A stretch of DNA of 31,380 nt, taken from assembly GCA_963666425.2 (NCBI GenBank), contig CAXXTX010000015.1, forward strand, positions 1-31,380, written 5' to 3'. Position 1 is the stretch's first letter; every line of letters begins with the position of its first letter. This DNA is from Bacillota bacterium (lineage in GTDB: Bacteria > Bacillota > JAAYKD01). The position numbers and the translations under genes were made by a program. Under the pieces are notes generated by a model. It had not been told where the DNA came from. It saw only the letters and a program-made list of their open reading frames with translations, and made no database searches. Below are positions 4,626-30,196 of the stretch, piece by piece.

Positions 4626-4652
4626 GCAGCGAGGTTTTCGTTCCTCTGCAGA

Positions 4653-5936: not shown

Positions 5937-5937
5937 T

Positions 5938-6996: not shown

Positions 6997-7022
6997 TTGG
7001 TTTCCTCCTTCTTTTCTCTTTT

Positions 7023-7229
7023 CTATTTTTCTACTTGTATCGCACAATCCGGACACATTCTGGCGCACATCGCACAGGCGATGCATTGCTCCGGATCACT
7101 GACTGTGACGGGATAATATCCCTTGATATTCATTTGTTTACCCATGACCAGGATCTTTTTTGGGCAGGCAGTGGTACAAAGACCACACCCTTTACAACGG
7201 TCTTCAAAAATCGTCACCTTGTTAGCCAT
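7023..7229 (-). CDS. 2x[4Fe-4S] ferredoxin (oxidoreductase delta subunit)
   Basis: CKGCGLCTTACP and CIACAMCARMCP motifs; RBS GAGGAGG. Confidence 0.95.
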   Translation of the reverse strand: MANKVTIFEDRCKGCGLCTTACPKKILVMGKQMNIKGYYPVTVSDPEQCIACAMCARMCPDCAIQVEK

Positions 7230-7256
7230 AATTCCTCCTCCTACTCTCTCTGCTTC

Positions 7257-8997: not shown

Positions 8998-9006
8998 CAG
9001 GTGCGC

Positions 9007-9921: not shown

Positions 9922-9957
9922 CTCTCCTTATTTTTTCTCTCTATAGGTTCTATGATA

Positions 9958-11019
9958 TTAATAAGTGCGAAGGATTTCCTCGCCCTTCAATACCCGAAAA
10001 ACACCCTCGGCCAGAGCACGCATCTCGTCCTCGCCCGGGTAACGATAAACCGCTGCGATCCAATTGACCAATTCCTCGATACCGCAGCAGAGCTGATCGC
10101 TGTGCGCCATACCGCCGGTGAGCAGAATCGCGTCCACTTTCCCTTTCAGGGTGACCGCCATGGCGCCAATTTCCTTACCAATCTGATAAACCATGGCCAT
10201 ATAGACTTCCGCAGCGCGGCGATCGCCGGCTGCAATCCGCTGTTCCACCACACGCAGATCGCCGGTTCCCAAATAAGCGATCAGGCCGGCTTTGCCGTTG
10301 ATCTTTTTAATCATTTCATTCTCAGTATACTGACCGCTGTAACATAAACGGACCAGCGAATAAACCGGCAGGGTACCGGCGCGTTCGGCCGAAAAAGGAC
10401 CGTTTTGATTGGCATTGTTGACATCAATCACCCGGCCGCCTGTAATGGGAGCAATGGAAAAACCGCCGCCCAGATGCGCCACAATCAGGTTCAGCGTTTC
10501 GTATTTTTGTTTTTGCAATTGGGCATGACGCAGGGCAATGGCTCGGATATTCAGCGCATGCAGCATGCTGACACGCGGTAATTCCGGTAAGCCGCTGAAT
10601 CGCGCGACCGGATCAAATTCATCAACCGAAACCGGATCGACAATAAAGGCCTGCACCGCATGCAAAGCCGCTAAGCGTTCTGCCAATAAACCGCCTAAAT
10701 TGGATGCATGAATGCCGTAAACACCGGATATTAAGTCCTGCCGCATTGCTTGATTGACCGAATAGACACCGCTGTGCAAAGGCTTCAGCATACCACCGCG
10801 TCCAACCACTGCTGTTAAAGTTTCCCCAACGGGTAGAACCAGCGGCAGCCATGCTTTAATCAGCTCCAGCCGGAACTCCAATTGATCGATGGTTTGGGCA
10901 AAGCCCGCCAGTTCCTCCGCTGTATGGTAAAAAGTCTGATCCGCTGCTTTGACATAATCGCAATAGAGCGCAACTTTTGTTGAAGTGGAACCCGGATTGA
11001 TCACAAGTACAATCTGCAA
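9958..11019 (-). CDS. buk: Second butyrate kinase paralog
   Basis: Motifs INPGSTSTK, VGRGG, HASNLG, VDPVSVDE, HLGGGFS, YPGEDE. Start placed at TTG 11019 after GAAGGGGAG. Confidence 0.93.
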   Translation of the reverse strand: MQIVLVINPGSTSTKVALYCDYVKAADQTFYHTAEELAGFAQTIDQLEFRLELIKAWLPLVLPVGETLTAVVGRGGMLKPLHSGVYSVNQAMRQDLISGVYGIHASNLGGLLAERLAALHAVQAFIVDPVSVDEFDPVARFSGLPELPRVSMLHALNIRAIALRHAQLQKQKYETLNLIVAHLGGGFSIAPITGGRVIDVNNANQNGPFSAERAGTLPVYSLVRLCYSGQYTENEMIKKINGKAGLIAYLGTGDLRVVEQRIAAGDRRAAEVYMAMVYQIGKEIGAMAVTLKGKVDAILLTGGMAHSDQLCCGIEELVNWIAAVYRYPGEDEMRALAEGVFRVLKGEEILRTY

Positions 11020-11146
11020 TCTTGCTCTCCCCTTCTTCTCATTTCTGCACACGACGTATCAGTTCGTCAATTACTGGAATTTCTCCTTCTCATGCAGCGA
11101 ATATTTAGCTACACGAAGCAAAAATCCACGTTTCACCTTGTCTTCT

Positions 11147-12004
11147 TCAGCTATGAATTACCAAACTGACTTGCACACCCGGGAAAAACCCGCAAGGGTA
11201 GTAAACTTGTCTAAAATTATTCTGCACATAGAGCCCGTTGCCTGAGCGCAGATAAAAAACACCATTCATGCGTTCTAAGGCCTTCACCACCTGGGTCAAA
11301 CCCAAACCACGGCCGGCTTCATTGGTACCGGAGACACCCTGCTGCAAAGCATAGCGGATCACCGCTTCATCCGACCAATCCCGCACCGGATGATGAATGG
11401 AAAGGCTGCCGCGCAGACCAATCCCCAAATCGGCAATGGCAAAATGGATGCTGCGGCCGCCTGTTTGCTTGCTGCGATAACTTTGCGCGGCGACGATGCC
11501 AAAATCACCGCTGTGCTGCGGCACATTTTGGCAGACTTCCGACAGCAGCGTACAAATCTGCAGCTGATCGCGGCTGAGAGATTTTTCACCGTTTTGCAGC
11601 ATGCGCTGCATATTTTTCATCATCATCATTACTAAGCCCGCCACATCTTCTTCCTGTTTCATCACGGTAATGGGAATCAGCCAGGGTTCTTCCCCGCTTT
11701 GTGGCAAAAAATGCAGGCGCTGGCTGGGAATCAGCGTGGCATACTTTTCGGCTTCACTTAAAAATCCGCTGCGCTGCAAATAGGATAAGACTTGATCGTT
11801 TTGCGGCAGATATAAGCCGACCCGCTCCACCACCATGGCGAGATAGCGCAGATAAGACAAGGTTAGAACCAAGCCAAAAGGATCAATGAATTCCAAATCG
11901 CGCAGCGAGAGCACATTGTTGCTGCCATCTTGCGGCTGTAAACGCGCCAGGGCTCTGGCCGTTGTTTCGCCAGTCAACGTAAAAGGAAGATTGAGAAAAT
12001 TCAT
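11147..12004 (-). CDS. STAS-like + histidine-kinase-like ATPase (HATPase_c) protein
   Basis: N-terminal STAS-like segment (LRDLEFIDPFGL...YLQRSGF). GHKL boxes LSEVCQN, IADLGIGL and GRGLGL. No recognisable HisKA H-box. RBS AAGGAGG. Confidence 0.7.
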   Translation of the reverse strand: MNFLNLPFTLTGETTARALARLQPQDGSNNVLSLRDLEFIDPFGLVLTLSYLRYLAMVVERVGLYLPQNDQVLSYLQRSGFLSEAEKYATLIPSQRLHFLPQSGEEPWLIPITVMKQEEDVAGLVMMMMKNMQRMLQNGEKSLSRDQLQICTLLSEVCQNVPQHSGDFGIVAAQSYRSKQTGGRSIHFAIADLGIGLRGSLSIHHPVRDWSDEAVIRYALQQGVSGTNEAGRGLGLTQVVKALERMNGVFYLRSGNGLYVQNNFRQVYYPCGFFPGVQVSLVIHS

Positions 12005-12057
12005 GCTTTCTCAATCCTCCTTCCCTTTTTAAATCCAGACCGTCAAATTTCTAATCT

Positions 12058-13299
12058 TTATTTTGTTTTTAGGGTTTGCCATAAGAGATAAGCGGCATTT
12101 TTTACGGTTCTCATTTTGATCTGACTGCGTGAACCGCTTAAATTCAATTGCTTGCTCATGGTAGTGCTGCCGGACGCAACCGCCAGCCAAACCAAGCCAA
12201 CCGGTTTCTCGGCCGTCCCGCCGCCCGGCCCGGCTACACCGCTGACCGCAATGGCATAATCCGTTCCGCTGATCGCTCTGGCCTGTTCCGCCATCTCGCG
12301 CACCGTTTCTTCGCTGACCGCGCCAAAGGTCGTCAGGGTTTCCGGCTTGACTCGCAGCTGCTGCATTTTGCTTTCATTACTGTAAGTGACCCAACCTTGC
12401 CGGAAATAACCGGAACTACCGGGAATATCGGTAAACGAACTGGCTAAAAGACCGCCGCTGCAGGATTCTGCCGTCGCTAAGGTTTCCCCACGCGCCAACA
12501 ACAGATTGGCTGCGGCGAAGAAGATCGTATCTTCATCTGTACCGTAAATATGTTCTCCCACACGTTTGGCAATTTCGGCAGTGAGCGCGTCAAATTTCAG
12601 ATCCGCTACCTCACGATTGGCGGCTCTGGTGGTCAGACGCATTTTGGTTTCTCCCATGCCGGCATAGAGCGCCATGGTAGGATCGACCTGGCTGCGCATC
12701 AGGTCGAGCACTTCCGTCTCCAATTGCGATTCGCCGATTCCAAAGAATTTGAGATTGCGGGAGAATAAATGCTGTTCCAAATTATACAGTTCTTTCAGCA
12801 GCGGTACAACTTGGTTCTCGAACATCGCGTCCATTTCCCAAGGCGGTCCGGGCAGCAAAAAAAGCCATTTATCCTGGTAAGGTACGGCATAACCGCAGGC
12901 TGTGCCATTGGGATTCTCCAACAGCATCGATCCCAGTGGTTTCAGTGCCTGTTTGCGGTTATTCTCTGTCATTTTGCCATGACGGGATTGAAAACGGTTG
13001 ATCAACCAATTCAACTGACCTTCATCCAGGACCAATTCGCGGCCGGTTGCTTCCGCCACCGCTTCCCGGGTCAGGTCGTCATCGGTGGGGCCGAGACCGC
13101 CGGTTAAAATCAAAATATCAGCCCGCGACATCGATTCGCGGATGCAGGCCGTCAAGCGCGCCGCATTGTCACCCACGGTAATCTGACGATAAACATTGAT
13201 GCCAAAATCCGCCAAACGCTGCGCCAACCAGGCGGCATTGGTATTGACGATTTGGCCTAAGAGAATTTCTGTGCCGACGGATATTAATTCCGCATTCAT
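12058..13299 (-). CDS. cinA: Competence/damage-inducible protein CinA
   Basis: VGTEILLGQIVNTN, GGLGPTDDDLT, LPGPP.E; C-terminal PncC domain (AESCSGG, YSNESK, GAVS, GVAGPGG). Confidence 0.96.
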   Translation of the reverse strand: MNAELISVGTEILLGQIVNTNAAWLAQRLADFGINVYRQITVGDNAARLTACIRESMSRADILILTGGLGPTDDDLTREAVAEATGRELVLDEGQLNWLINRFQSRHGKMTENNRKQALKPLGSMLLENPNGTACGYAVPYQDKWLFLLPGPPWEMDAMFENQVVPLLKELYNLEQHLFSRNLKFFGIGESQLETEVLDLMRSQVDPTMALYAGMGETKMRLTTRAANREVADLKFDALTAEIAKRVGEHIYGTDEDTIFFAAANLLLARGETLATAESCSGGLLASSFTDIPGSSGYFRQGWVTYSNESKMQQLRVKPETLTTFGAVSEETVREMAEQARAISGTDYAIAVSGVAGPGGGTAEKPVGLVWLAVASGSTTMSKQLNLSGSRSQIKMRTVKNAAYLLWQTLKTK

Positions 13300-14630
13300 G
13301 CGATGCCATCTCCTTTAATTGCTTCTGCCACTAAATCATAGCCTTGAATTGCGATTGCTCTCGCCTTGACAAAGCTCCCCACCACACCGTTGCCCTGATA
13401 AATCACCAGGCCATCGATATCGGGTGCTTGTCCGCGAAAACGTCCCAGCCAACACTGTTCGGACACTTCTTTCTCCAAGAGGACCTCAATCTCCTTGCCC
13501 AGCCAACGCTGCAATTTATCCTGCACCACACTTTGCTGCGCTTCCATCAGCAAATTGCGCCGCCGCTGTTTTTCTGCTTCTTCCACTTGCATTGGCATAG
13601 CAACCGCGCCGGTACCGTCTTCGGCCGAATAAGTGAAGACACCGACATGATCAAATTTCGTCTGTAAAATAAATTGACGCAGTGCTTCGGCATCCTCTGC
13701 GGTTTCCCCCGGGAAACCGGCGATATAACTGGTGCGTAAAACCAAATTCGGCATCGCCTGGCGCAATTTGGCAATCAGGGCGAGAATTTCCGCTTTGCTG
13801 CCGGTCCGATGCATGGCTTGCAGAATGCTGTCCTGGCAATGCTGCAGCGGCAGGTCGATGTACTGACACATCTTGGGATTGCTTGCCATCAATTCTATAA
13901 AATCGTCGGTAAAATGTGTCGGGTAGAAATAAAGAATTCTCAGCCAGTGCAGTTCTGCTATTTGCACCAGTTCGCGGCAGAGACGGCCGAGAGCATATTC
14001 GCCGTAAAGGTCTTGGCCATAGAGCGTGCAGTCCTGCGCAATCAGACAAATCTCGCGCACGCCGTTCGCCACCAGTTCGCGGCATTCCGCCAGAATATCT
14101 TCCACCGTGCGGCTGCGGTAATGACCGCGGATCATTGGGATGGCACAATAGCTGCAGCGGTTATTGCAGCCGTCGGCAATTTTAACATAAGCGATCGCCG
14201 GCATCGTTGCCTGCATACGCGGCATGGTATGATCAAACAAATAATTCTCAGGCTCGCTGACCGCCAGCACCTGCTGTTTTTGGGCGCGAATCTGCTCCAA
14301 GATCTTCAACACGGAGGGGAAATCACCCACACCGATTAAAGCGTCCACTTCCGGCAGTTCCGCTGCCAATTCCTTGGCATAGCGCTGCACCAGACAGCCA
14401 GTCACCAAGAGATATTTTAACGCTCCGGTTTTTTTCAGTTCAGCCATTTCCAGAATCTGATCGATCGATTCCTGTTTAGCCGATTCGATAAAACCGCAGG
14501 TATTGACGACCACTACTTCGGATTCTTCCGGCTGCGCATAAGTATAACCGGCGTTCGCCAAAACACCCATCATCATTTCGCTGTCGACCAGGTTTTTGGT
14601 GCAGCCCAAAGAGATCATCGAGAATTTCAT
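13296..14630 (-). CDS. rimO: Ribosomal protein S12 methylthiotransferase
   Basis: SLGCTKNLVDSE, NTCGFIESAKQES, radical SAM motif CNNRCSYC, QAPDIDG in the TRAM region. Confidence 0.95.
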   Translation of the reverse strand: MKFSMISLGCTKNLVDSEMMMGVLANAGYTYAQPEESEVVVVNTCGFIESAKQESIDQILEMAELKKTGALKYLLVTGCLVQRYAKELAAELPEVDALIGVGDFPSVLKILEQIRAQKQQVLAVSEPENYLFDHTMPRMQATMPAIAYVKIADGCNNRCSYCAIPMIRGHYRSRTVEDILAECRELVANGVREICLIAQDCTLYGQDLYGEYALGRLCRELVQIAELHWLRILYFYPTHFTDDFIELMASNPKMCQYIDLPLQHCQDSILQAMHRTGSKAEILALIAKLRQAMPNLVLRTSYIAGFPGETAEDAEALRQFILQTKFDHVGVFTYSAEDGTGAVAMPMQVEEAEKQRRRNLLMEAQQSVVQDKLQRWLGKEIEVLLEKEVSEQCWLGRFRGQAPDIDGLVIYQGNGVVGSFVKARAIAIQGYDLVAEAIKGDGIA

Positions 14631-16483
14631 TTTCTAGCCCCCAGATTTGGTTTTTTATAGCCGCTGCGCCGTGTTTTTTTAGGCTGCACGTTGCCCGTAG
14701 GACGGATCAGACTGTTTTTATCATAACCGATTAAGTCTTCTCTGCCTGCCTGATGTAAGGCTTTCAAGACTTCGTCACGATTGTCCGGACGGCGGTATTG
14801 CAGCAATGCGCGCTGCAGTTTGCGTTTTTCTGCTGTTTTGACCACGGTTACGGCTTCCCCGGTCATCGGGTTCAAGCCGGTGTAATACATGGCGGTGGAA
14901 ACACTGCCCGGAGTTGGGATGAAATCCTGTACCTGCTCCGGCTGAAAGCCGAGATCATGTACGTATTCTGCGAGTGTTACGGCGTCCTGCAGGGAGCAGC
15001 CGGGATGAGATGTCATGAAATAAGGCACCAAAAACTGATCTCTGCCCAATTCCCGATTGACTTCTTCGTACATTTTGCGGAAGCGATTGAAGACGCTGAC
15101 ACCGGGTTTGCCCATAGTCTGCATCACCGAATCGGCCACATGCTCCGGCGCCACTTTTAATTGTCCGCTGATATGGTACTGACAGAGTTCCTTCAAATAG
15201 GCTCTGCCCTTGGGATCCGCCAGCAAGTAATCATAACGTACGCCGGAACGGACGAAAACTTTCTTTACCTTGGGAATCACGCGTGCCTCCCGCAGCAGGG
15301 CAAAATAATCGCTGTGGTCGGCATCCAAATTGGGACAAGGTTCGGGGAACAAACATTGACGATTACTGCAGGTTCCCACCGTCAATTGTTTTTGACAGGA
15401 AGGAATGCGGAAATTGGCGCTGGGTCCCCCAATATCGTGAATATAACCTTTAAAGCGATGGGAGTTGGTCATCAGCCGAATCTCACGCAAAATACTCTCA
15501 TGGCTGCGGGCTTGGATGATTCTGCCCTGATGGCTGGTGATAGCACAAAAATTGCAGCCGCCAAAGCAGCCGCGATGACTGGTGATGCTGAATTCCACTT
15601 CATGCAGCGCCGGAACGCCGCCCAAAGCATCGTAGCTGGGATGCCAGGCTCGTTCATAAGGCAGATCGTAGACCGCATCCAATTCGGCGGTGGAAAGCGG
15701 TTTCGCCGGGGGATTGACGATCAGCCAATTGGTTTTCTGTTTTTGCGCCAGCTTCTTCCCGGAAAAAGGATTTTGTTCCAGTTCGCTGAGGCGAAATGCT
15801 GTGGCGTAACTTCTTCTGTCATTGACAACCTGTTCATAGGAAGGAAGCTCGACGGTATTCTCTTCCGGGCTGAACTCATCCTGCAGATAGGCGCTGCCGG
15901 CAATTTCGTGCAGTTTGGTCAGGGGTACGCCTCTTCGCGCATATCTTGCAATTTCCTTCGTCTGTTTCTCACCCATGCCGTAAATCAGCAGATCGGCCTT
16001 GCTGTCCGCTAAAATAGATTGCATCACTTTATCGTCCCAGTAATCGTAATGCGCCATTTTACGTAAGCTCGCTTCGATGCCGCCGAGTACGATCGGTACA
16101 TCGCCATATAAGCGCCGAATGATCTGACAATAAACCGTCACCGCCCGATTCGGTCTTTTACCCCCGATTCCACCGGCCGCATAATCGTCTTCGCTGCGCC
16201 GCTTTTTATTGGCCGTATAATTATTCAGCATCGAATCTAAATTGCCGCTGGAAACCAAAAAGCCCAAACGCGGCCTGCCGAGCTGCGTAAATTGTTTATC
16301 GTCTTTCCAGTTGGGTTGGGCAATCATACCCACCCGGAACCCTTCCGCTTCCAACATGCGGCTGATAATTGCGCTGCCAAAGCTGGGATGATCAACATAA
16401 GCGTCACCGCAGACCATAATAAAATCACATTCATCCCATTCTCTTGCCTGCATTTCGGCTGCAGTCATCGGTAAAAAAGCCAT
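14627..16483 (-). CDS. ygiQ: YgiQ family (UPF0313) radical SAM protein
   Basis: GDAYVDHPSFG, GGIEASLR..AHYDYW, HRGCFGGCNFC, SGQLKVAPEH, QVQDFIPTP. Confidence 0.93.
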   Translation of the reverse strand: MAFLPMTAAEMQAREWDECDFIMVCGDAYVDHPSFGSAIISRMLEAEGFRVGMIAQPNWKDDKQFTQLGRPRLGFLVSSGNLDSMLNNYTANKKRRSEDDYAAGGIGGKRPNRAVTVYCQIIRRLYGDVPIVLGGIEASLRKMAHYDYWDDKVMQSILADSKADLLIYGMGEKQTKEIARYARRGVPLTKLHEIAGSAYLQDEFSPEENTVELPSYEQVVNDRRSYATAFRLSELEQNPFSGKKLAQKQKTNWLIVNPPAKPLSTAELDAVYDLPYERAWHPSYDALGGVPALHEVEFSITSHRGCFGGCNFCAITSHQGRIIQARSHESILREIRLMTNSHRFKGYIHDIGGPSANFRIPSCQKQLTVGTCSNRQCLFPEPCPNLDADHSDYFALLREARVIPKVKKVFVRSGVRYDYLLADPKGRAYLKELCQYHISGQLKVAPEHVADSVMQTMGKPGVSVFNRFRKMYEEVNRELGRDQFLVPYFMTSHPGCSLQDAVTLAEYVHDLGFQPEQVQDFIPTPGSVSTAMYYTGLNPMTGEAVTVVKTAEKRKLQRALLQYRRPDNRDEVLKALHQAGREDLIGYDKNSLIRPTGNVQPKKTRRSGYKKPNLGARK

Positions 16484-16512
16484 TGTTTACTCCTTATTGT
16501 CTGTTGATATCG

Positions 16513-19029
16513 TTATTCACTGAATTTGTTCTCCAATTGTTCTTTCGACATCGTCACTTCCCGCGGCTTGCTGCCCTGCGCCGGACCGACCACGCCGTAC
16601 TCTTCCAATTGATCCATCAGGCGGCCTGCCCGACTGTGACCCACTTTTAATCTGCGCTGCAAATAAGAAACCGAACCCTGCCCGGATTCGATCACGATGC
16701 GGGCGGCCTGCAGGAAGAAATCATCCAGATCGCCCGTATCGGTTTCTTCGTTTTCCAATTCTTCCGGCGTCAGGATAGCCTCGTTAAAGACGGGTGCACC
16801 CTGCATTTTGACATGTGCAATCACCGCATCCAATTCTTTTTCGGAAATATAGGCACCCTGAATGCGGATCGGTTTGGGAATACCCATCGGCTGAAACAGC
16901 ATATCGCCGCGGCCCAGCAATTTCTCGGCGCCGTTCATGTCCAGAATGATACGGGAATCGGTGCCGGAAGAAACCGCAAAAGCAATACGGGAAGGAATAT
17001 TGGCCTTGATTGTGCCGGTGATTACATCGGCGGAAGGCCGCTGCGTGCCCATCACCAAATGAATACCGCAGGCCCGCGCCAATTGAGCAATGCGGATAAT
17101 CGATTCCTCCACATCTTCTTTGGCCACGATCATCAGATCCGCCAATTCATCGATAAAAACGATCCAATAGGGCAAAGCTTCGCGCTCACCGCTTAAATTG
17201 ACTCGCTCATTGAATTGACCAATGCTTTTGACACCCAGTACGGCAAACAATTCGTAACGCCGATCCATTTCTTTGGTCACGGAACGCAGCACGCCAGCCG
17301 CTTTTTTAGGATCGGTCACTACCGGTGACAACAAATGCGGAATGCCGTTATAATTGATCATTTCCACCACCTTGGGATCGATCATGATCATTTTTACTTG
17401 CTGTGGAGAAAAGCGATACAATAAACTGGTAATAATACAATTCATGCAGACGCTTTTACCGGAACCGGTAGCACCGGCGATTAAAAGATGCGGCATCTTA
17501 GTCAAGTCAGTCACAATTGTCCTGCCGGCGATATCTTTGCCCAGCGCCACGATCACCCCTTTATCGGAATTCTGGAATTCAGGGGAAGATAAGACATCGC
17601 GGATGGCTACAATGGCGACCTCTTTGTTCGGCACTTCAATGCCGATGGCAGGTTTGCCGGGAATCGGCGCTTCAATCCGCACCCCGGTTGCTGCCAAGCT
17701 CAGCGCTATATCGTCGGCTAAATTCGCCACTTTATTGACGCGGATCCCCGGCGCCAACTGCAGCTCATAGCGGGTGATTGCCGGGCCGCAGCTAACATGC
17801 ACCACTTTGGCTTTGACGCCAAAAACGGCCAGCGTCTGTTCCAATTGATCGGTTTTCTCTTCCAACTCCGCCATGCGGTTCTTCGGCATCGCCAAACCGG
17901 CGGCAAGCAATTCCAAGGGCGGTTTGATATAGACAGCTATTTTATGCTGCGGCATCACACTTGTTTCCACATCATCTTTGGCAGTGCTTTTTCCGGTGAC
18001 AGTCAACGGATTTTCTTTGCGCTGCGGTGAGTTCATCGCTTTACCGCTGGGCATCCGCTCCGGAACAGCGGCAACAGGACTGCCAGCGGTTGGCGATGCC
18101 GCATCCATGGCGATACTCTCCACGGTGAAGCGAGGCTTTGGCGGCTGCATCGCGGGTTCTTCTGCGTCTAAATTCAGCTGCGCTGTGTTTTGCTGATAAA
18201 TCAACTCCGAATCCGGAGTCAATTGCATCACTTCGTTAGCCGGCGAAACAGATAAGCCTGACTGCTGTATCTTCTCTCCCGCAATCCGAATGGAACTCAG
18301 CCGTTTCTCCGGTGAAATTTCTGCGGCAGCCTCTGCCGGCTGCCGATTGGCCGCTATACTCAGTTGCGGCTGTTTCGCTTCTGCGGGTTGGACAGCACTT
18401 TGAGTCTGTTGATTTTTGTTAAAAACAGGCAGGCTGATTTTGGGTCTGGCCTGGAATAAGCGCTTGATTTGCCGCCCAAACAGCGTCAGGAAATAGGACG
18501 GTGCCAGGTGACTGATGAGACAAACCGCCACAAAAACCAGTAAAAGCAAGACCAACACGCTGCCGGCGGTGCCAACAATCTGTAAAATAGCGTTCAGCAA
18601 GGAAGAGCCTAGAATTCCACCCGCCCGGCGAAAGGTCTCTTCCGCCATAATATCTTGCCGCTGAAACCAAAACCCTAAGGCGACCGACATCATCACAACA
18701 AAATTCAAAATGACAATACCAATCAGCAATCCGGCGCGGATGCCACTAGGACGCGCCAATAAAACAGCCAGACAAACATATAATAAGGTAGCAATCGGCA
18801 GGATAGCTGCGCTGCCAAACATATAACGGAAAAAATCGGCCAACACACTGCCGATACTGCCTGTTTTATCGTAAAACAAACTGATGCCGATGTAAATTAA
18901 AACAAAGGAGCCCACCAAAGGCAGCAGCCATTTTGCGGAACGCAAAAAACCTTCGCTGAAAAAAGGTTTTGGTGCCGGCTTTCTTCTGCGGCGTTTTTTG
19001 GTCTCGGTCAAATCAATCACCTCTGTCAA
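16513..19029 (-). CDS. ftsK: DNA translocase FtsK/SpoIIIE
   Basis: N-terminal TM helices, low-complexity linker, PHLLIAGATGSGKS, IDELADL, GAEKLLGRGDML and a C-terminal gamma domain. The TTG start is less certain. Confidence 0.96.
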   Translation of the reverse strand: MTEVIDLTETKKRRRRKPAPKPFFSEGFLRSAKWLLPLVGSFVLIYIGISLFYDKTGSIGSVLADFFRYMFGSAAILPIATLLYVCLAVLLARPSGIRAGLLIGIVILNFVVMMSVALGFWFQRQDIMAEETFRRAGGILGSSLLNAILQIVGTAGSVLVLLLLVFVAVCLISHLAPSYFLTLFGRQIKRLFQARPKISLPVFNKNQQTQSAVQPAEAKQPQLSIAANRQPAEAAAEISPEKRLSSIRIAGEKIQQSGLSVSPANEVMQLTPDSELIYQQNTAQLNLDAEEPAMQPPKPRFTVESIAMDAASPTAGSPVAAVPERMPSGKAMNSPQRKENPLTVTGKSTAKDDVETSVMPQHKIAVYIKPPLELLAAGLAMPKNRMAELEEKTDQLEQTLAVFGVKAKVVHVSCGPAITRYELQLAPGIRVNKVANLADDIALSLAATGVRIEAPIPGKPAIGIEVPNKEVAIVAIRDVLSSPEFQNSDKGVIVALGKDIAGRTIVTDLTKMPHLLIAGATGSGKSVCMNCIITSLLYRFSPQQVKMIMIDPKVVEMINYNGIPHLLSPVVTDPKKAAGVLRSVTKEMDRRYELFAVLGVKSIGQFNERVNLSGEREALPYWIVFIDELADLMIVAKEDVEESIIRIAQLARACGIHLVMGTQRPSADVITGTIKANIPSRIAFAVSSGTDSRIILDMNGAEKLLGRGDMLFQPMGIPKPIRIQGAYISEKELDAVIAHVKMQGAPVFNEAILTPEELENEETDTGDLDDFFLQAARIVIESGQGSVSYLQRRLKVGHSRAGRLMDQLEEYGVVGPAQGSKPREVTMSKEQLENKFSE

Positions 19030-19079
19030 TTTTCTAATGCATAAGCTGATTATACCACAAGCGATAAGAACTATACAAG

Positions 19080-19106
19080 AAAAAAGCTACCGCTAACGGC
19101 AGCTTT
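19080..19106 (-). terminator. Probable terminator after rnj
   Basis: AAAGCTACCG-loop-CGGCAGCTTT hairpin with an A tract on the left. Confidence 0.55.
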
Positions 19107-19125
19107 CATTTCTTAGTTAAATAAC

Positions 19126-20802
19126 TTAAATATCCAGAATAACCGGCAGCACCATCGGTCTGCGCCTGGTTTTCTCAAACAGCATTTTCGATACGGCATC
19201 CTTGACGAGACCGCGGAAAAGTGCCGGATCGTAATTCTTCATATCCGTTGCCCGCACAAAATCGGCCAGTTTTGATGTCACATCATCAATCAACGCTTCC
19301 GATTCTTTGGTATAAACAAAACCGCGGGTAATCAGTTCGGGTAAGCCCACCAATTGTTTGCTGCGCCGTTTCAGGGCCAGAGCCACAATCACCACGCCAT
19401 CCTGCGCTAACAATTTCCGGTCTTTCAGCACCACATTGCCGATGTCTCCCACACCCAAACCGTCCACCAACACTTTTTCAGCCGGCACCCGATCGGTAAT
19501 GGCGGCGCCCAGGTCGCTGAATTCTAAGACTTCACCGTTGGTCAGAATGAAAATATTCTCATCCAGCCAGCCCAACTGCTCAGCCAGATATTTATGCTGC
19601 ATCATATGGCGCATCTCGCCGTGAATGGGGATAAAATACTTGGGATTGGTCAGCGACAGCACCAGCTTCAGCTCGTCCTGTCCGGCATGCGAACTGATAT
19701 GATTGCGCGAAATTAGATCATAAACCTGCTCTGCTCCCTGACGATAGAGCATATCGATGGTGCGAATGAAAGTTTTCTCAGTGCCGGCATGATACGAACC
19801 GGTCAGAATGACCGTGTCCTCTTTTTCCAATGGAAAGCGCTGACCGCTCTCACCGCTTAAGGGGCTCAGATAAGGCTCGCCCGGAATGGAAGCCAGTAAA
19901 ACGATGCCGGGTTTGCTTTTGACATTGCCGCGGTGATTCTTATTCTGTGCCGAAGCCACATTACGGCGGCTGTAGGTCAGACAACCGGCGCTCTCCGCCC
20001 GCTCCATCACATTCAGCAGTTGCTCGGTTGGAATGGAGACGCGGCGGCCGGTTTCTTCAGCGATGGTCAGCACCTGCTGCACACGCACCAAATCGGTGAT
20101 ATAGAGATGGATGATCACGCGCCCCGCCGCATGACGAATCATGCCGGAGAGCTGGTCGCCAATTGCTTTTTCCGAAAGCGTGCTGCCCATGTATTCCGCG
20201 TTGACAGAATCGGAAAGCAGAACCAAAACCCCTTCGCGGCCTAAGGTGCCAAAACGATCCAGATCGGTGCGTTTGCCATCCACCGGCGTATAATCAACTT
20301 TAAAATCACCGGTATGAATAATCCAACCCATCTCGGTTTTAATCGCCACGCCACAGGCATCGCCGATATCGTGATTGACATGAATCAATTCACAGAGCAT
20401 CTGTCCCAACATAAACGGTTTGCCGGCTTCGATGGTATTCATCTGCACCGGTTCGAAATAATCATATTCGTTGAGATAAAAACGCGCCATTGCTAAAGTC
20501 AGCTTGGTGCCGTAAACCGGCAAATTGAGCTGCTCCAGCAGATACGGCAAAGCGCCGATATGATCCTCATGACCATGTGTTAAGATCAAACCCTTGATCT
20601 TATCCTGGTTTTCCAGGAGAATACTGACATCCGGGATGACAACATCAATTCCCAGCATACCATCTTCCGGCATAGCGGAGCCGGAATCGATGATCACCCA
20701 ATCGTCTCCCACACAGACGATCATCATATTCTTACCCAACTCACCCAAGCCGCCCAACGGGATTAATTTAATACTTTGACCAATAGACATTTTTACTTCC
20801 AT
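19126..20802 (-). CDS. rnj: Ribonuclease J (divergent)
   Basis: LIPLGGLGELGKN, THGHEDHIGA, HTGDFK.D, HISSHA, PIHGE.RH, VDGLGVG, KTRRRPM. Confidence 0.9.
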   Translation of the reverse strand: MEVKMSIGQSIKLIPLGGLGELGKNMMIVCVGDDWVIIDSGSAMPEDGMLGIDVVIPDVSILLENQDKIKGLILTHGHEDHIGALPYLLEQLNLPVYGTKLTLAMARFYLNEYDYFEPVQMNTIEAGKPFMLGQMLCELIHVNHDIGDACGVAIKTEMGWIIHTGDFKVDYTPVDGKRTDLDRFGTLGREGVLVLLSDSVNAEYMGSTLSEKAIGDQLSGMIRHAAGRVIIHLYITDLVRVQQVLTIAEETGRRVSIPTEQLLNVMERAESAGCLTYSRRNVASAQNKNHRGNVKSKPGIVLLASIPGEPYLSPLSGESGQRFPLEKEDTVILTGSYHAGTEKTFIRTIDMLYRQGAEQVYDLISRNHISSHAGQDELKLVLSLTNPKYFIPIHGEMRHMMQHKYLAEQLGWLDENIFILTNGEVLEFSDLGAAITDRVPAEKVLVDGLGVGDIGNVVLKDRKLLAQDGVVIVALALKRRSKQLVGLPELITRGFVYTKESEALIDDVTSKLADFVRATDMKNYDPALFRGLVKDAVSKMLFEKTRRRPMVLPVILDI

Positions 20803-20951
20803 CCTTTATCTGATTTCTTATACTAAAATCGAATGTTTGTTTCGATTTTCAGGTCATCTGCAACACGACAATCTAAAAAAGTACGCGATATAGATTACTT
20901 CCACAACAGTGCTGCCCTTTCCTTCTTTCTCCCTGTAGCACATTGCAACAC

Positions 20952-20997
20952 AAAAAAGCAGCCGACGAAATTGATTATTTTCATCGGCTGCGCTTTT
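20952..20997. terminator. Intrinsic terminator after the M42 peptidase gene
   Basis: AAAAAAGCAGCCGACGAAA...TTTCATCGGCTGCGCTTTTT hairpin. Confidence 0.65.
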
Positions 20998-21020
20998 TAA
21001 AAATTACGGGCGGCTTGTTT

Positions 21021-25535: not shown

Positions 25536-25851
25536 AATTGGTCAGAGCTATCGATTTTTTTAAATACTCACCTGAAGTGCATAAGTTGATCTATTCTACA
25601 AGCACGGTTGAAAGTTAGCATCGTCAGCTGCGAAAAGTGACAAAAGTGAAAAGCAGATTTCCTAATGATGAAGCGTTGCAGAAAATGCTTTACCTTGCTA
25701 CTCAGGATGTTCTCAGGAAGTGGTCTAGGCGCATTCAAAACTGGGGCCAGATTCTCTTACAATTGTCGATTTATTTTTCCGGATAAGGTTTCATCCTATT
25801 TGCAGTAATGTTTGTTCTGGTAAGCAAAAGCACAAAACTCTTGACAGACCC
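25536..25851 (+). mobile_element. IS256-family remnant (transposase C-terminus and right end)
   Basis: Conceptual translation NWSELSIF/FKYSPEVHKLIYSTSTVES*HRQLRKVTKVKSRFPNDEALQKMLYLA...W...NWGQILLQL. Ends in CACAAAACTCTTGACAGACCC, typical of IS256 right ends. Confidence 0.85.
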
Positions 25852-26079
25852 CAACAAAACCCAATATACCACTCGGGCTGCTCCTAAGCATTGCCCTATC
25901 TAGTTTAGGAGTAAACGCATTATTATGATGCCACCAGGAGAAATCGTTGTCACTCAATTAGAATGGAATTCTCTCCCGTTAGGCTGGTGCTGTTTCACCG
26001 AGAGCGCGGAGTTAATCTGCCGTTTCAATGGAGTTGTACGTACGTGCCCGTGGTGTTTAGGTCTCGTAATTTACACTGT

Positions 26080-26185
26080 GGCCAGATTCTCTTACAATTG
26101 TCGATTTATTTCCCGGATAAGGTTTCATCCTATTTGCAGTAATGTCTGTTCTGGTAAGCAAAAGCACAAAACTCTTGACAGACCC
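26080..26185 (+). mobile_element. Second copy of the IS256 right end
   Basis: Near-identical ~106-bp direct repeat of 25745-25851. Confidence 0.85.
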
Positions 26186-26229
26186 TATTCTTACCTCTTC
26201 AGATCTCTAAACTAGCTTTCATTTTTCAT

Positions 26230-26817
26230 TTAAGGTTTAACCTTTGTTTTTGAGGTAATAGAGTTACTTCTTTTATCAAATGTCTTGTCAATATATGTAT
26301 TTGGCTCAACTTTAAAATCATCCCATTTCACCAATACACAATACCTATCTTCTTCGGTCCAACAGCAGCCACTATCTTTTGGAATATAATAATTATAACT
26401 AAATTCTTTAACCACGGTATCATCATTTATATTCACATAATTATGAACTCCTCCGCAAGAGCTACATGTGTATTCACCTTTATATATTTTTTCATACATG
26501 GATGGTAAAACAACTCCTAGAATTCCATTTTTTGTGTTATTCTTCCCATTATAAAGAGAGGCTTGCAACTCGCGTTTTATATAAGTTTGGTCTTCTAACC
26601 AATTATTTTCAGAACTACAATTTCCAATTAAATGGATAGTTACGGTTGAATCTGAAAGGTAATCTTCTCTTATCTTTCTCATGATATAATCTTCATCGTC
26701 TGAATCAATTGCCTCATTTAATGATTTATCAATCATATCAATACTCAAATCGCTTTGTATCTCTTCTTTATAGGAGATATCTTCTGTCTTAAACGAAATG
26801 AAACATTTGTGAGCCAT
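26230..26817 (-). CDS. TIR domain protein, Thoeris ThsB-like (DUF1863/MTH538 type)
   Basis: HKCFISFK, IREDYLSDSTVTIHLIG, YIKRELQASL (TIR catalytic-Glu position), NGILGVVLP. RBS GAAGGGGG; intact ORF. Confidence 0.85.
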   Translation of the reverse strand: MAHKCFISFKTEDISYKEEIQSDLSIDMIDKSLNEAIDSDDEDYIMRKIREDYLSDSTVTIHLIGNCSSENNWLEDQTYIKRELQASLYNGKNNTKNGILGVVLPSMYEKIYKGEYTCSSCGGVHNYVNINDDTVVKEFSYNYYIPKDSGCCWTEEDRYCVLVKWDDFKVEPNTYIDKTFDKRSNSITSKTKVKP

Positions 26818-26840
26818 AATTTCTAATCCCCCTTCATTTT

Positions 26841-28054
26841 TTATATTATATTCTTAAGCTCATCTATTGTATCTATATATGTTTGTTTCTCCCATCCAGC
26901 TCTACAGCTCTCATAAAATTTGACCTGATACTTGTTACAATTCTCGTTATCTCCTAAGCAGAAATAACAAACTGAAAGAGTAGCATACATCCAATAATTA
27001 ACCTCATCATCTCTTAAATTACTTTCAATAATTTCGATGATTTCTTTTTGCACATTCTTACTTTCAAATTTCAAATAATTTATCTCATCATTAGTCAAAT
27101 CTTTCTGTTTTGTTTTCAATAATAAACAATTAGCAAGATTTTCTCCGTTATAAAAATCATTTAGAATAATATAACCTTTTTTGTAATAATAAATCGCTTC
27201 ATTTAAATAATCAAAGTTGTTATTCAATCTATACAGCCTCTTATATATCGCTCCTGTGATACCTAACGTCTCTATATCAAGAGAATTTTTAGGTTCTAAC
27301 TTTTTGATAATATTAAGTGCTCCTTCTAGAGCGAGAGTTTCGTTAGGAATTTTAGATTTATATGTACAAAAAGCCAACTGTTGCACTACATAATCATTAT
27401 TTGGCAATAAATCTACAAGTTTTCTCCATATCAATATAGCTAATTCAAATTGGTCATGACTTTTTAGACTTTCAGCTTGTTCAACTAAACCTGCAATGTT
27501 TTCGCTTTTTCCTTTAGCCTCACTTACTATTTTATCGTATTCGTCATCAGCAAGAGATGGTGGAGATATATGCGGCAAGAAAGTATATAACGGGCTATCT
27601 GATTCTTTCTTTTCACTAGTAAGAACAAACATCTTAAGTTGTTCTCTTATAAGGCGAGCTTCTTCATCATCAAAATCCTCTCCTATTTCTTTATATACGA
27701 GGAAACGTGAATGATTTAAATCAAAAGGGATTCTGCACTGTTTTTCTGCCATAATAATTGTAGAGTAGGGTTTTAGAGCATGCCTCACTCCTAGTTCATA
27801 TATTGCATTTGGATTTAATGTTGTAATATCCGCAATGACTAAATCGGATTTCATTAATAAGGTATACATGCTAACATCAATTATTGAAGAACCTGCTATT
27901 TCGTCTGCTCTTATCAATTCATAATCCTTCATATCTTTTTCAAACAACTCTTAATAACTTTTTTATAAATCTTATCTAGGTCCACTTCTTTTGAGTTTTC
28001 ATAGTCCATTTTTTTCCCAAAACCCATTACTACAAAACAAATCTTTTGACTCAT
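26841..28054 (-). CDS. Nucleoside-deoxyribosyltransferase-like + TPR (DUF4071/MAP3K TRAF-binding-like) protein, with one frameshift near the 5' end
   Basis: ATG 28054 with AAGGAGG gives MSQKICFVVMGFGKK...DLDKIYKKVI. One missing base at ~27951 joins it to ELFEKD...RADE...SDLVIADITTLNPNAIYELGVRHAL...PFDL...DSPLY, then the TPR-like ETLGITGAIYKR...YNGEN...YWMYAT. Confidence 0.75.
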
Positions 28055-28202
28055 TGAAATCCTCCTTATTATTTCAAAATATGAAAGGTTCTATTTCATA
28101 TTAAGCTTAAATTTGAATTCTTCTTTATACTTCTTCTCTTTCTAGTGAAAGAAATATCCAATTGTCAATCGTTTCAGATTAAGGTTGTTAGGTATGAAAA
28201 TC

Positions 28203-28232
28203 ATCATATCACATCATATCATATCATATCAT
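28203..28232. repeat. (ATCAT)6 microsatellite
   Basis: ATCAT ATCAC ATCAT ATCAT ATCAT ATCAT, overlapping the stop codon at 28229. Confidence 0.8.
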
Positions 28233-29107
28233 TGCGTTTCTAACTTAGTTTCACTCAACCCCTCGTCATGAGATTCTTTAGCCACATAGTCAAGACTCAT
28301 TTCAGGTAATTCTGCTGTGTCTGGTATAGGATAAATTGCATTTAGTGCATACCCAATTGGATAACCCATATTATCATGTCCTACAATCCGACTTGGACCC
28401 CCTAGCGAAAAACCTGAATCCGATTTAAAATTCACCTTAGATTTACTAACTATAACTCCGATTAAATAATCATTATTAAACTCTGGAATAATAGAATATC
28501 TGAAAACAGTCCCTGGAATTTCAAAATTATAATGCTTAACTGCAAGATAGTATTTACCGTTCGAAATTCGAAGGTAAGGTCCTACATCTTTCCTGGAAAA
28601 AAGATAACCTTCAATAAGATATGAATCATGTGTAGTAGCAATAGATTTCCGGCTATAGTACTCGTGAAACTTTAGAGGACTTTCATCCTTTTTTTTATTA
28701 GACCACGCCTTAAAATTGTTTAACCCCATAAATTAATCGCAAATGTTGGTCCAGTTGATATTGGTTTATTCAGTGGGGGAATAAATATTCCAAGTCCTTT
28801 AGGTTCACCTGTTTCAGGATCTATACCTGAGCAAATTGAACCTTGAATATCCGAGGAAAATTGGCAGAATCCACCATGATGGATGCTAAGCTTCGGTCTC
28901 TGAGATGCATAAAACTCTTGAATTAATGAATCTCTTGGTATTCTTATGATTTCTGGGTATCTATAAGTGATCGGTGTTTTCATTAATATTCCTTTTCCCA
29001 TATTATGGTATGGAACAACTACTGAAAAACCACCATCTGATAAAAAAAATTATTGTCGTTACCTTAACACCTTTTTCTTTTTCGAAGAGAACTATAGGAT
29101 ATTTCAT
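28229..29107 (-). pseudogene. Hypothetical ~292-aa protein split by two homopolymer frameshifts
   Basis: ATG 29107 after AAAGGTGA. Removing one base from the 8-nt run at 29042-29049 and adding one to the 4-nt run at 28724-28727 joins MKYPIVLF..., ORF 28720-29001 and ORF 28229-28729 into one frame. Confidence 0.65.
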
Positions 29108-29140: not shown

Positions 29141-29770
29141 TCAAAAATACTTCTCAAAAAACTTCTGAGTTTTTCGATTACACACTGCTTTTTTCTTTGA
29201 CCGGTCTCCGGAGAAGCGTGAAACCAGCGGTAGGATTTTATCAATACTTGTGCCCGTTGTTTTCAGAGCGCCATCGCGGAAAGAACCCGATAAGAATCTG
29301 CGGGTTTCCTCCGGTTTCAGCTTTTCGTTTTGAATGAGTGCAGCTAAGTCACTCTCTTTTTGCACTTCCACAAAAGTATACCAATCGTCATCCACATTGG
29401 TGGAGGTATTGACCTGCTTAATAAAGCCTTCAATTAATTCCTTCTTGCTGCGAAGTGCCATGCTGGAACCGATGGCTCTGTCAATTGTGGTAAGGATATT
29501 TTTATCCGTACAATGGGATTCATGGTACTTTGATACCAGCAGCAGGATATAATCAATGTTGACTTCCACCTGCTTGATCAGTTCAATTTCAAATACAATG
29601 TCTTCGTTGATGTTTGCTTTGTCGGTGGCTTTTCCACCCGTGATTTCGTAAATGCTTTGGTAATCCTAGAAATTCCGCTCAAAAAGGATTTCATTACTGG
29701 CATAATCGTCAAAGGCAAACAGGACATTCTTCAGCCGCAGAATCGCGCCAAAAAGCCGGATGAAACCCTT
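29141..29770 (-). pseudogene. hsdR: C-terminal remnant of a type I restriction enzyme R subunit
   Basis: FIRLFGAILRLKNVL..FDD....IL.ERNF*DYQSIY...EDIVFEIELIKQVEVNIDYIL...LRSKKELIEGFI...TTGT.IDKILP.VSRF...FFEKYF. In-frame TAG at 29666-29668; no helicase or nuclease domains. Confidence 0.88.
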
Positions 29771-30196
29771 CCTTCAACTGAGTCAGCACCAAGGAGGTGA
29801 TATCAAAGCGTGGATCGGGATAAGCACATTCATAAATGTCAATTTCCCATCTCATTCCTCCCTATTTATTAAAATTTGCACAGTAGAAACTTTTCTGCCA
29901 CAACTAGAATCTCCTTGGTTTATTATTCTTTTTTTTGAAACACATCGAGAGGAATAGCTAATTGCTTTTTGAGAAAACCATTTCAGTTCGAAACCATCTC
30001 AATCCAGAAAATCCTCTTTTATGATTGCATAATGGCTGCTTCGCTTGTTTATCTCCTTGTCTGATTTGGTATCTTTCCCTTAAAATTGATAATATCGTTC
30101 TTTTTATTTTAAATCCTTTCTTGGTAATAAGATTCCTTCCTTTTTTAATTTATTATTAGAACGTAGGGAACACTGCTCAATCAATCTGAAATATCA

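Follow-up and report, generated by a model that had tools for sequence, protein, structure and literature searches.

Background

Type VIII Thoeris consists of ThsB and ThsI and uses canonical cADPR as its signal (Yirmiya et al., bioRxiv 2025, 10.64898/2025.12.03.692087). The systems tested are those of Yersinia enterocolitica and of a Pseudomonas scaffold. Their TIRs produce cADPR only upon infection, also when expressed alone, and added cADPR arrests growth only in cells that contain the type VIII system (10.64898/2025.12.03.692087). In Bacillus cereus, both genes of the BcTir/Tpr pair are needed for defence, and the substitutions N82A and E86A in BcTpr abolish it (Liu et al., bioRxiv 2023, 10.1101/2023.05.26.542521). 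Such a pairing had been predicted in 2020 by Burroughs and Aravind, whose prediction is cited in both preprints. The two preprints conflict with regard to which protein makes cyclic ADPR and what the effector cleaves (10.64898/2025.12.03.692087 vs 10.1101/2023.05.26.542521).

Here we analysed a pair of genes in a stretch of 31,380 nucleotides from a Bacillota bacterium (the window; contig CAXXTX010000015.1). A sequence-only reading had regarded the pairing as undescribed. This claim of novelty fails because the pair matches named systems, namely type VIII Thoeris (Yirmiya et al. 2025) and BcTir/Tpr (Liu et al. 2023). We consider it likely that the two genes form a Thoeris-type defence operon of the type VIII or BcTir-Tpr kind, an assignment set by the domain architecture, the motif numbering and the plasmid homologues, with the validated ThsI and BcTpr known by description. 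Its domains and their pairing match the published defence pairs, and by this analogy the same reading was probably right in proposing a two-gene TIR-based anti-phage system. The main value of the analysis is a correction: a seemingly undescribed pairing was already predicted in 2020 and tested in the preprints of 2023 and 2025. The search with PADLOC (2.0.0) that had been suggested as a check did find ThsB, but reported it as an orphan together with a partial "Effector TIR" match. Because PADLOC-DB 2.0.0 sees only these two pieces, loci of this kind will continue to be reported as novel.

The gene pair and its surroundings

Both genes are encoded on the minus strand in the order effector, then TIR, with 23 bp between the effector stop and the TIR start (Table 1). 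The GC content is 0.33, 0.30, and 0.335 across 26-29 kb of the window compared to 0.49-0.54 across 3-23 kb. Coordinates, ribosome binding sites and GC content thus agree with the first description of two co-oriented, AT-rich genes that each have an RBS. The RBS of the effector gene and its spacer are kept in the DNA alignment with the relatives L002, L003, and L004. A scan for promoters and terminators yielded 10 sites compared to a mean of 13.6 in shuffled sequences, and therefore no promoter is claimed.

Table 1. Features of the gene pair, of its surroundings, and of the effector protein.
Feature	Position	Strand	Details and evidence
Variable hot-spot cargo without counterpart in C1	25300..28215		blastn of C1:63000-74000 (L097) vs window: homology stops at 25299 and restarts at 28216
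IS256-family transposase, C-terminal remnant	25544..25726	+	PF00872 Transposase_mut E 4e-9, profile 317-377 of 379, one internal stop
Two direct IS-end copies (25740-25851, 26075-26185)	25740..26185	+	about 112 nt, 97% identical; repeat search, families D1 and D2
ThsB-type TIR gene	26230..26817	-	195 aa; ThsB_TIR and PADLOC ThsB matches
Intergenic spacer, 23 bp	26818..26840	-	TIR-gene RBS GAAGGGGGA at 26827-26835; sequence reading
Effector gene, probably ThsI/BcTpr family	26841..28054	-	split in window: ORFs 27929-28054 (41 aa) and 26841-27947 (368 aa)
Frame break in effector gene	27947..27953	-	one A missing from A run (ATTAAAGAG in relatives); alignment with L002, L003, L004
Effector RBS and spacer	28055..28067	-	AGGAGGA at 28060-28066, 5 nt ahead of ATG; sequence reading
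Conserved flank gene	28229..29001	-	ORFs of 93 aa and 166 aa; intact in C1 at 257 aa; 81% identity over 165 aa to L097:3095-3868
hsdR (type I restriction R subunit), C-terminal remnant	29141..29569	-	EcoR124_C 7.4e-30, PADLOC REase_I 1.2e-19
MilB/NDT-like N-glycosidase domain	about residues 1-160 of 404-aa effector		structure-model matches
TPR-S/ASK1-like helical domain	about residues 170-404 of 404-aa effector		Pfam and structure-model matches

The pair had been placed between IS256 ends and an hsdR remnant, and the transposase remnant, the IS-end copies and the EcoR124_C match were all found. The IS element is present in multiple copies in the sequencing runs, as seen by many loose ends and a raised depth at 26075-26190; nothing matching the IS region was found in the plasmid collection. 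The flank gene between the hsdR remnant and the pair has no match in Pfam, PADLOC, or NCBIfam. The same assembly contains a sister contig (C1) of 98% identity, in which the corresponding site is occupied by a type II Thoeris. C1 also lacks the stretch 29220-29806, in which the hsdR remnant lies. The effector-TIR operon is horizontally mobile and located in a defence hot spot. Two near-identical chromosomal haplotypes with type II and type VIII-like Thoeris, respectively, at one site show cassette exchange at this hot spot. The spread of the long TIR is sporadic: a sample of 400 other genomes of the phylum yielded it in 3.

The effector protein

The C-terminal part of the effector matches the Pfam family TPR-S (PF20308; E 1.3e-19 with the ORF of the window, 1.8e-22 with the intact relative P0004) and MAP3K_TRAF_bd, formerly DUF4071 (E 3.6e-5). 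Nothing was found on the N-terminal domain in the Pfam search. The model of this domain (pLDDT 81) best matches the MilB CMP N-glycosidase (4ohr, 4ohb, 4jem), with E 2.1e-4 and TM 0.59-0.60 in Foldseek and Z 12.2, rmsd 3.5, and 137 aligned residues in VIA-align, where the TIR and NDT folds, members of the same superfamily, are tied within 1 Z. Comparison with the Rcl/DNPH1 profile gave a sub-significant E of 0.26 with the YELG motif aligned. The residues N81, N83, and E87 of the NPNxxxE motif are invariant (19/19 rows in A2, 29/29 rows in A3). An NDT-like N-terminus with a retained Glu had been recognized from the sequence before, and both the MilB match and the invariant E87 bear this out. 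DRHyd receives only a passing mention in Kaur et al. 2020 and 2021.

The top fold match of the whole-effector model is ASK1 (8qgy, E 1e-7, 450 alignment columns), and the central regulatory region of ASK1 is also matched (5ulm, E 4e-4). In a PDB sequence search with the intact effector, the TPR protein IFIT2 was the sole match (E 0.0046). Together with the TPR-S and MAP3K_TRAF_bd matches, the ASK1 fold match supports the proposed DUF4071/ASK1-like TPR region. Animal ASK1 (MAP3K5) resembles the effector in its N-terminal region, but the effector has neither a kinase nor a PH domain, and the glycosidase Glu is retained in it. The two are related in structure or evolution and are not functionally identical. 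As the counterpart of the ASK1 N-terminal region in bacteria, the effector bears on the origin of this animal stress-kinase module.

The TIR protein

The TIR protein matches ThsB_TIR in Pfam (PF08937; E 1.6e-9, 38.5 bits compared to a curated cut-off of 21.2) and ThsB in PADLOC (E 2.6e-13). NCBIfam has no family for either the TIR protein or the effector. The candidate catalytic Glu is E83 within IKRELQ, and it is invariant in the 25 rows of alignment A4, as are four Cys of the C-terminal part (C118, C121, C151, C160; 25/25). By sequence, the nearest solved chain is 9vyl, a "putative cyclic ADP-D-ribose synthase TIR1" (E 1.4e-4 with the single sequence, 6.6e-9 with the profile).

Relatives of the pair

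The effector family comprises 2691 proteins at E<=0.001. Intact relatives have a length of about 404 aa and share 79-83% identity with the effector of the window. A neighbourhood analysis of the pairing had been proposed. The nearest neighbour is a Pfam TIR gene in 76 of 91 related loci, and in 78 of 91 if two further neighbours that can be aligned to the same TIR family are included. This count omits L012 and L014, whose matches cover only 85 and 34 residues. At least one TIR-neighboured locus is present in 25 of the 33 clusters at 70% identity and in 48 of the 60 clusters at 90% identity. TIR genes are found on both sides of the effector gene in 27 of the 91 loci. No TIR neighbour was detectable in 13 of the 91 relatives, four of which are located at or near contig ends; others are flanked by a SLATT, patatin, or STAND gene, or by housekeeping genes, the latter being the case for three Acidobacteriota loci. 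Thus, the ThsB-type TIR and the effector combining a MilB/NDT-like glycosidase with TPR-S form a conserved operon, in which all candidate catalytic residues are kept.

Relatives of the effector with 39-45% identity, full-length in the case of Pseudomonas and E. coli, are encoded on plasmids of Pseudomonas, E. coli, Klebsiella, and Citrobacter, with a TIR gene downstream. The partner TIRs on the proteobacterial plasmids examined have 132-134 aa. The TIR that adjoins the relative L059 matches PDB 8fz9, "Bacillus cereus TIR protein", with a profile E of 3.3e-36. Position 37 in 8fz9 is a Lys, as reported for BcTir. The L059 effector has I10, M11, N80, P81, N82, and E86 if the start is taken one residue later. 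In the short TIRs of the BcTir class the Glu of the SxWxxxE motif is invariant (23/23 rows), and 8fz9 shows this Glu as well.

The frame break in the effector gene

The deposited window does carry the frameshift in the effector gene that had been noted before, but the frameshift is probably absent from the organism, because independent Logan contigs of two public sequencing runs, X1 (depth 11.6) and X2 (depth only 2.1), have the missing base as a T inserted behind position 27950 of the plus strand. Of the four runs in this check only these two cover 27950, X3 and X4 having no coverage at the site, and X1 may be the source sample of the assembly. The organism therefore probably has an unbroken effector gene, with the frameshift being an assembly error. 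A programmed -1 slippage at GAAAAAG downstream of the break had been considered as frame rescue and was dropped since the read-derived contigs carry the missing base.

If the frameshift were real in the strain, the effector would lack its first beta-strand and the pair would be the dead passenger of a degraded island. The break in the window would fit such a decayed remnant, as would the IS256 scars, the hsdR stump and the split flank ORF of the island. However, we regard this as unlikely. Both runs that cover the site have the intact reading, and the X1 contig shows no further difference from the window over 26159-28197, about 2 kb. The TIR gene is unbroken, and all residues invariant in A2, an alignment that does not include the window protein, are present in the two ORFs of the window. 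In addition, the loss of one base in a base run is a frequent type of consensus error.

Comparison with the described systems

As in type VIII Thoeris, the TIR gene is adjacent to the effector gene and co-oriented, and the pair is located in a defence island. The effector domain of type VIII, termed "CMP hydrolase" (MilB/NDT-like), corresponds to the N-domain with its best model match to MilB, and the TPR domain predicted by the group of Aravind corresponds to TPR-S. The order of effector and then TIR is also that of the relatives encoded on plasmids of Pseudomonas and E. coli, and some relatives have an extra SLATT gene (L081, L090, and E. coli pKMi029_2; compare the legend to Figure 5I in 10.64898/2025.12.03.692087). 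The pair of the window is from a Bacillota clade while the tested type VIII systems are from Yersinia enterocolitica and Pseudomonas, and its TIR has 195 aa and a four-Cys C-terminal part in contrast to the short TIRs of the proteobacterial plasmid relatives.

BcTir/Tpr shares with the pair its origin from Bacillota, the length of the effector (404 aa in the relatives of the window effector compared to 415 aa), and the combination of a MilB-like N-domain with a TPR C-domain. The NPNxxxE motif is also common to both, the spacing of N81, N83, and E87 agreeing with N80, P81, N82, and E86 of BcTpr and the numbering being off by one. However, BcTir is short (8fz9 class) and encoded upstream, whereas the window has only the long TIR, which is encoded downstream; many relatives (27 of the 91 loci) possess both. 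The window ORFs upstream of the effector gene (28229-29001) have no TIR match, so that there is no short TIR of the BcTir type at this place. Thoeris types I and II have a ThsB-type TIR as well and the same logic of a signal maker and a signal-activated effector. Their ThsA proteins contain SIR2-SLOG or Macro-TM domains, whereas Pfam and PADLOC gave no SIR2, SLOG, or Macro match in the effector of the window, which agrees with the earlier statement that the partner is not ThsA.

Proposed mechanism

By analogy to the systems of both preprints, phage infection would cause the TIR protein to convert NAD+ to a cyclic ADP-ribose signal, which is canonical cADPR in the tested type VIII systems. The effector would bind the signal, presumably via its TPR-S domain, and binding would free the N-terminal glycosidase, for which the Asn and the Glu of NPNxxxE are expected to be essential as in BcTpr. 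The glycosidase may then cut the N-glycosidic bond in nucleotides or in NAD+, by which the phage would be starved or the infection aborted. The first of two options offered by the sequence-only reading, a TIR signal that activates an N-glycosidase effector, corresponds to the type VIII Thoeris model in the literature.

The roles could also be distributed as described for BcTir/Tpr, where the cADPR isomer and the depletion of NAD+ were attributed to BcTpr and not to BcTir (Liu et al., 10.1101/2023.05.26.542521). The N-domain of the TPR protein would then make a cADPR isomer and subsequently deplete NAD+, and the TIR would be a catalytically silent regulator in a physical complex. BcTpr binds cADPR (Kd 1.9 uM) and then NAD+, and BcTir and BcTpr interact and are both required (10.1101/2023.05.26.542521); the shared NPNxxxE motif would fit such a role of the window effector. 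It is nevertheless quite unlikely that the pair works in this way. The ThsB-type Glu is kept in the TIR of the window and in all rows of A4, and the invariant Glu of the short BcTir-class TIRs, which is present in 8fz9, fits active TIRs. Furthermore, type VIII TIRs expressed alone produce cADPR on infection (Yirmiya et al., 10.64898/2025.12.03.692087), and the 2023 preprint is the sole paper on the BcTpr system found in our literature search.

A reversal of the two roles, in which detection of the phage by the TPR-S protein would turn on the TIR as NAD+-depleting effector, is very improbable. In other systems, TPR domains serve as sensors of phage proteins. The presence of two TIR genes in 27 of the 91 relatives could be read in the same direction. 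The TIR might be the effector in some unverified TIR operons (Yirmiya et al., 10.64898/2025.12.03.692087). In type VIII, however, cells are harmed by added cADPR only if they contain the system, and the TIR produces cADPR without its partner (10.64898/2025.12.03.692087). A pure sensor would have no use for the glycosidase residues that are strictly conserved in the TPR protein.

A possible sub-type

The sole difference of the window pair from the tested systems is the partner, the long four-Cys TIR. BcTir (8fz9) and the partner TIRs on plasmids have only about 130-138 aa, and because of this difference to the long form the identity of the signal could differ as well. It is conceivable, though doubtful, that the Bacillota clade of the window pair forms a sub-type of its own within type VIII. 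The ThsI-family effector would then be driven solely by a long ThsB, whose four-Cys sensor part would probably bind zinc, and the short TIR would be dispensable. The long TIR would answer another phage cue or make an ADPR-derived signal other than canonical cADPR. If this were true, the frequent three-gene operons of short TIR, effector, and long TIR would feed two sensors into one effector. The window pair, which occurs naturally with two genes, has the Glu in its ThsB and lacks the short TIR, provides a clean test case for the disagreement between the two preprints.

The TIR gene and its partner

The minus-strand pair in the window is real, probably intact, and, as judged from its architecture, motifs, folds, and neighbourhoods, belongs to a class of TIR-signalling defence systems that others have already described and tested. 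The sequence-only reading had described the locus accurately: two co-oriented, AT-rich genes 23 bp apart, each with a ribosome-binding site, between IS256 and hsdR remnants. Both ribosome-binding sites are strong, and GC is 0.30-0.335 over 26-29 kb versus 0.49-0.54 in the contig core. The downstream gene encodes a ThsB-type TIR protein (Pfam ThsB_TIR, 1.6e-9, 38.5 bits at a cut-off of 21.2; PADLOC ThsB, 2.6e-13). The longer ORF of the upstream gene, the effector, matches Pfam TPR-S (1.3e-19) and MAP3K_TRAF_bd, formerly DUF4071 (3.6e-5), and its N-terminal part gives a partial match to the PADLOC "Effector TIR" model (2.1e-8). Next to the IS256 stump, the IS end is present twice (97% identity). 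The rest of the window consists of housekeeping genes, and no resistance gene families were found in it.

Features of the pair, its surroundings, and the corresponding island of the sister contig C1
Feature	Position	Strand	Evidence	Remark
IS256-family transposase stump	25544-25726		E 4e-9	one side of the pair
ThsB-type TIR gene, 195 aa	26230-26817	-	Pfam, PADLOC	downstream gene of the pair
Effector, 368-aa ORF	26841-27947	-	ORF reading	upstream gene, split
Effector, 41-aa ORF	27929-28054	-	ORF reading	upstream gene, split
Conserved gene of no known family	28229-29001	-		93-aa and 166-aa ORFs; 257 aa in C1
hsdR C-terminal stump	29141-29569		EcoR124_C 7.4e-30	other side, past the split ORF of no family
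Type II Thoeris of C1 (stretch L097)	L097:4085-6813 = G000:C1:67084-69812			ThsB 183 aa, ThsA 280 aa, ThsB 171 aa

The frame break

Close relatives of the effector are single proteins of 404 aa, and a DNA alignment with three relatives places the break at one A missing from ATTAAAGAG on the minus strand. The Logan contigs of four public sequencing runs were compared with 26000-28300, and only two, X1 and X2, span the break. Their contigs read an additional T after plus-strand position 27950, which is exactly the absent base. Run X1, which may be the source sample of the assembly, holds 97% of the sampled words, and the inserted T is the sole difference between its contig (4843 nt, depth 11.6) and the window over 26159-28197; the coverage in X2 is thin (a 269-nt contig of depth 2.1). 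Even so, the frame break is explained most simply by a wrong consensus in the assembly as deposited; at most, it is a variant carried by a minority. All residues that are invariant across the aligned effector relatives are found in the two ORFs of the window. Given the probable one-base error at 27950, the neighbouring gene without family assignment may likewise be split by an indel of the assembly.

Fold and conserved residues of the effector

To represent the whole effector, the intact relative P0004 was modelled with 19 aligned sequences (pLDDT 83.8), which gave a Rossmann-like alpha/beta domain (residues 1-160) followed by helical repeats (170-404). The top Foldseek match of this model is human ASK1 (8qgy, E 1e-7, 450 columns), and the ASK1 central regulatory region is matched as well (5ulm, 4e-4). 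Modelled separately with 29 sequences (pLDDT 81, pTM 0.80), the N-domain is best matched in Foldseek by the CMP N-glycosidase MilB (4ohb, 4ohr, and 4jem, E 2e-4 to 6e-4, TM about 0.6; by VIA-align Z 12.2 and rmsd 3.5 with 137 residues aligned), with TIR domains and nucleoside 2-deoxyribosyltransferases within about 1 Z of MilB; Foldseek also matched the effector of retron Ec86 (7xjg, E 7.4e-4). Pfam gave no match on the N-domain, and the N-domain profile found only sub-significant matches in the PDB (Rcl/DNPH1, E 0.26), in which the YELG of the effector family aligns with the YELG of Rcl, whose Glu is catalytic. In the NPNxxxE motif of the effector, N81, N83, and E87 are invariant in both alignments (19/19 and 29/29 sequences). 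The characterization of the partner as NDT-like with a retained Glu and a DUF4071/ASK1-like region was correct.

Proteins 28-34% identical to the N-terminal part of the effector are encoded in 37 temperate phage records (Streptococcus, Staphylococcus, Enterococcus); none covers 80% of that part, and they are annotated as hypothetical and lie near the genome ends (records H26-H35, e.g. Enterococcus phage phiEf11 41941-42369, L105).

Pairing with TIR genes among relatives

The effector family is large: of 6893 candidates comparable in length, 2691 proteins matched at E<=0.001. Loci were gathered from species-representative genomes (13) and from the best 80 of 447 confirmed metagenome stretches, and 91 were counted after leaving out the partial matches L012 and L014. 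The 149 flanking ORFs compared with Pfam comprise the 143 nearest ORFs at most 300 bp from the match and six chosen by hand, including the TIR-like ORF of L007, 439 bp upstream. The nearest neighbour is a Pfam TIR gene (ThsB_TIR, TIR_2, or TIR) in 76 loci, and the neighbours in L063 and L088, while lacking a Pfam match, are 58-63% identical to the TIR family of the window, giving 78/91 in total; TIR genes lie on both sides of the effector in 27/91. Many loci are near-identical and clusters were therefore counted as well: a TIR-linked locus is present in 48/60 clusters at 90% identity and in 25/33 at 70%. The pairing seen in the window is conserved among its relatives. No TIR neighbour was detected in 13/91 loci, which reach or come close to the end of their contig (L018, L022, L067, L075), adjoin SLATT genes (L011, L049, L090), patatin (L094), a STAND NTPase (L051), or Fic (L061), or stand amid housekeeping genes of Acidobacteriota (L009, L010, L013). 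Two of the latter (L013:4114-5868, L009:5026-5961) are stand-alone relatives beside NAD synthase and a histone-deacetylase-family gene. Such stand-alone relatives may point to a role of the effector family outside defence, or one that needs no TIR protein.

The TIR genes fall into two classes. The short class has about 130-153 aa and an SxWxxxE Glu invariant in 23/23 sequences, and the long class, which includes the TIR of the window, has about 194-209 aa with IKRELQ and four Cys invariant in 25/25. The window and its closest relatives, L002, L003, L004, L016, and L017, have a long TIR only, downstream of the effector; L015, another of these relatives, begins too near the end of its contig to show what lies upstream. 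Three-gene operons of short TIR, effector, and long four-Cys TIR occur in 27/91 loci (L005, L019, L023, L058, L070, L082, L085, L089, and others), with the short TIR first and the long TIR last in the close clade and the opposite order in distant clades. In the reverse direction, the long-TIR profile was compared with a sample of 400 further genomes from the phylum and matched three. The near-identical match, in G161, again flanks a TPR-S/MAP3K_TRAF_bd protein, also with a short TIR, and the two others are weaker and in different TIR contexts. The G161 protein (L102:1739-3136, 465 aa) matches the full Pfam MAP3K_TRAF_bd profile (7e-60, positions 2-363), is only 32% identical to the effector of the window over the TPR-S part, and yet has both of these TIR classes, short and long, on its flanks.

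Comparison with described systems

The suggestion that the pairing was new was not borne out, as it matches type VIII Thoeris, which Yirmiya et al. (bioRxiv 2025, 10.64898/2025.12.03.692087) define as ThsB + ThsI, and BcTir/Tpr of B. cereus, which guards E. coli against T phages according to Liu et al. (bioRxiv 2023, 10.1101/2023.05.26.542521). The 2025 preprint reports for the two tested type VIII systems, one from Yersinia enterocolitica and one from a Pseudomonas scaffold, that the TIRs make canonical cADPR only on infection, and for the Pseudomonas-scaffold system that added cADPR halts the growth of carrier cells while 2'cADPR and 3'cADPR do not. BcTpr is described in the 2023 preprint as a protein of 415 aa with a MilB-like N-domain (1-189), in which N82A and E86A abolish defence; this motif numbering agrees with that of the window's effector family to within one residue. 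[quoted passage not shown] The two preprints disagree on the substrate of the effector.

The TIR adjoining the relative L059 matches PDB 8fz9 (profile E 3.3e-36), an entry titled "Bacillus cereus TIR protein"; residue 37 of that chain is Lys, which is what the 2023 preprint states for BcTir. 8fz9 is probably BcTir. The inactivity of BcTir is put down there to a Glu-to-Lys change at this position. Compared with our alignment of 23 short TIRs (A5), however, 8fz9 retains the SxWxxxE Glu found in every one of them, so the catalytic-site assignment of that preprint may call for a second look.

Two plasmids, Pseudomonas pA7J1 and E. coli pKMi029_2, encode full-length effector relatives under the annotation "TRAFs-binding domain-containing protein"; the next gene downstream encodes a TIR protein, of 134 aa and 132 aa, respectively. 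In contrast to BcTpr and these proteobacterial plasmid relatives with their short TIRs, the Bacillota clade of the window has the long four-Cys ThsB as sole partner. The distinctness of this clade from the described systems is modest, although it may bring a change of trigger or signal; many relatives carry both TIRs. Literature searches on "ThsI" and "type VIII Thoeris" gave nothing beyond the 2025 preprint, a search on "BcTpr" gave, for this system, nothing beyond the 2023 preprint, and PADLOC-DB 2.0.0 contains no model for the effector.

SLATT/DUF4231 membrane genes lie beside effector and TIR genes in L081:2427-5139, L090:1782-4691, and L096 (E. coli pKMi029_2), in line with the mixed type VII + VIII operons that are mentioned by Yirmiya et al. 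(10.64898/2025.12.03.692087).

A variable site with alternative defence cargo

Contig C1 of the same assembly represents the same chromosomal region as the window (G000:C1:63000-92176, L097, corresponds to 1-31380), with 98% identity over 3000-21000 (18 kb of housekeeping genes) and 83-90% near the island. The contamination estimate of the assembly is 6.85%, and therefore a contig from a strain variant within the bin is a more probable source of the window than a duplication. The flanks shared by both contigs are an AstE/AspA-like gene and the gene without family assignment, which has 257 aa in C1. Between these C1 carries a zinc-ribbon protein and a type II Thoeris system of ThsB, Macro-domain ThsA (PF20016, 2.9e-42), and a second ThsB, where the window has the TIR/effector pair and IS256 scars instead. 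Among the effector relatives, L002 and L062 adjoin integrases, L016 adjoins a full hsdR and a HEPN gene, and 69 plasmid records carry members of the family.
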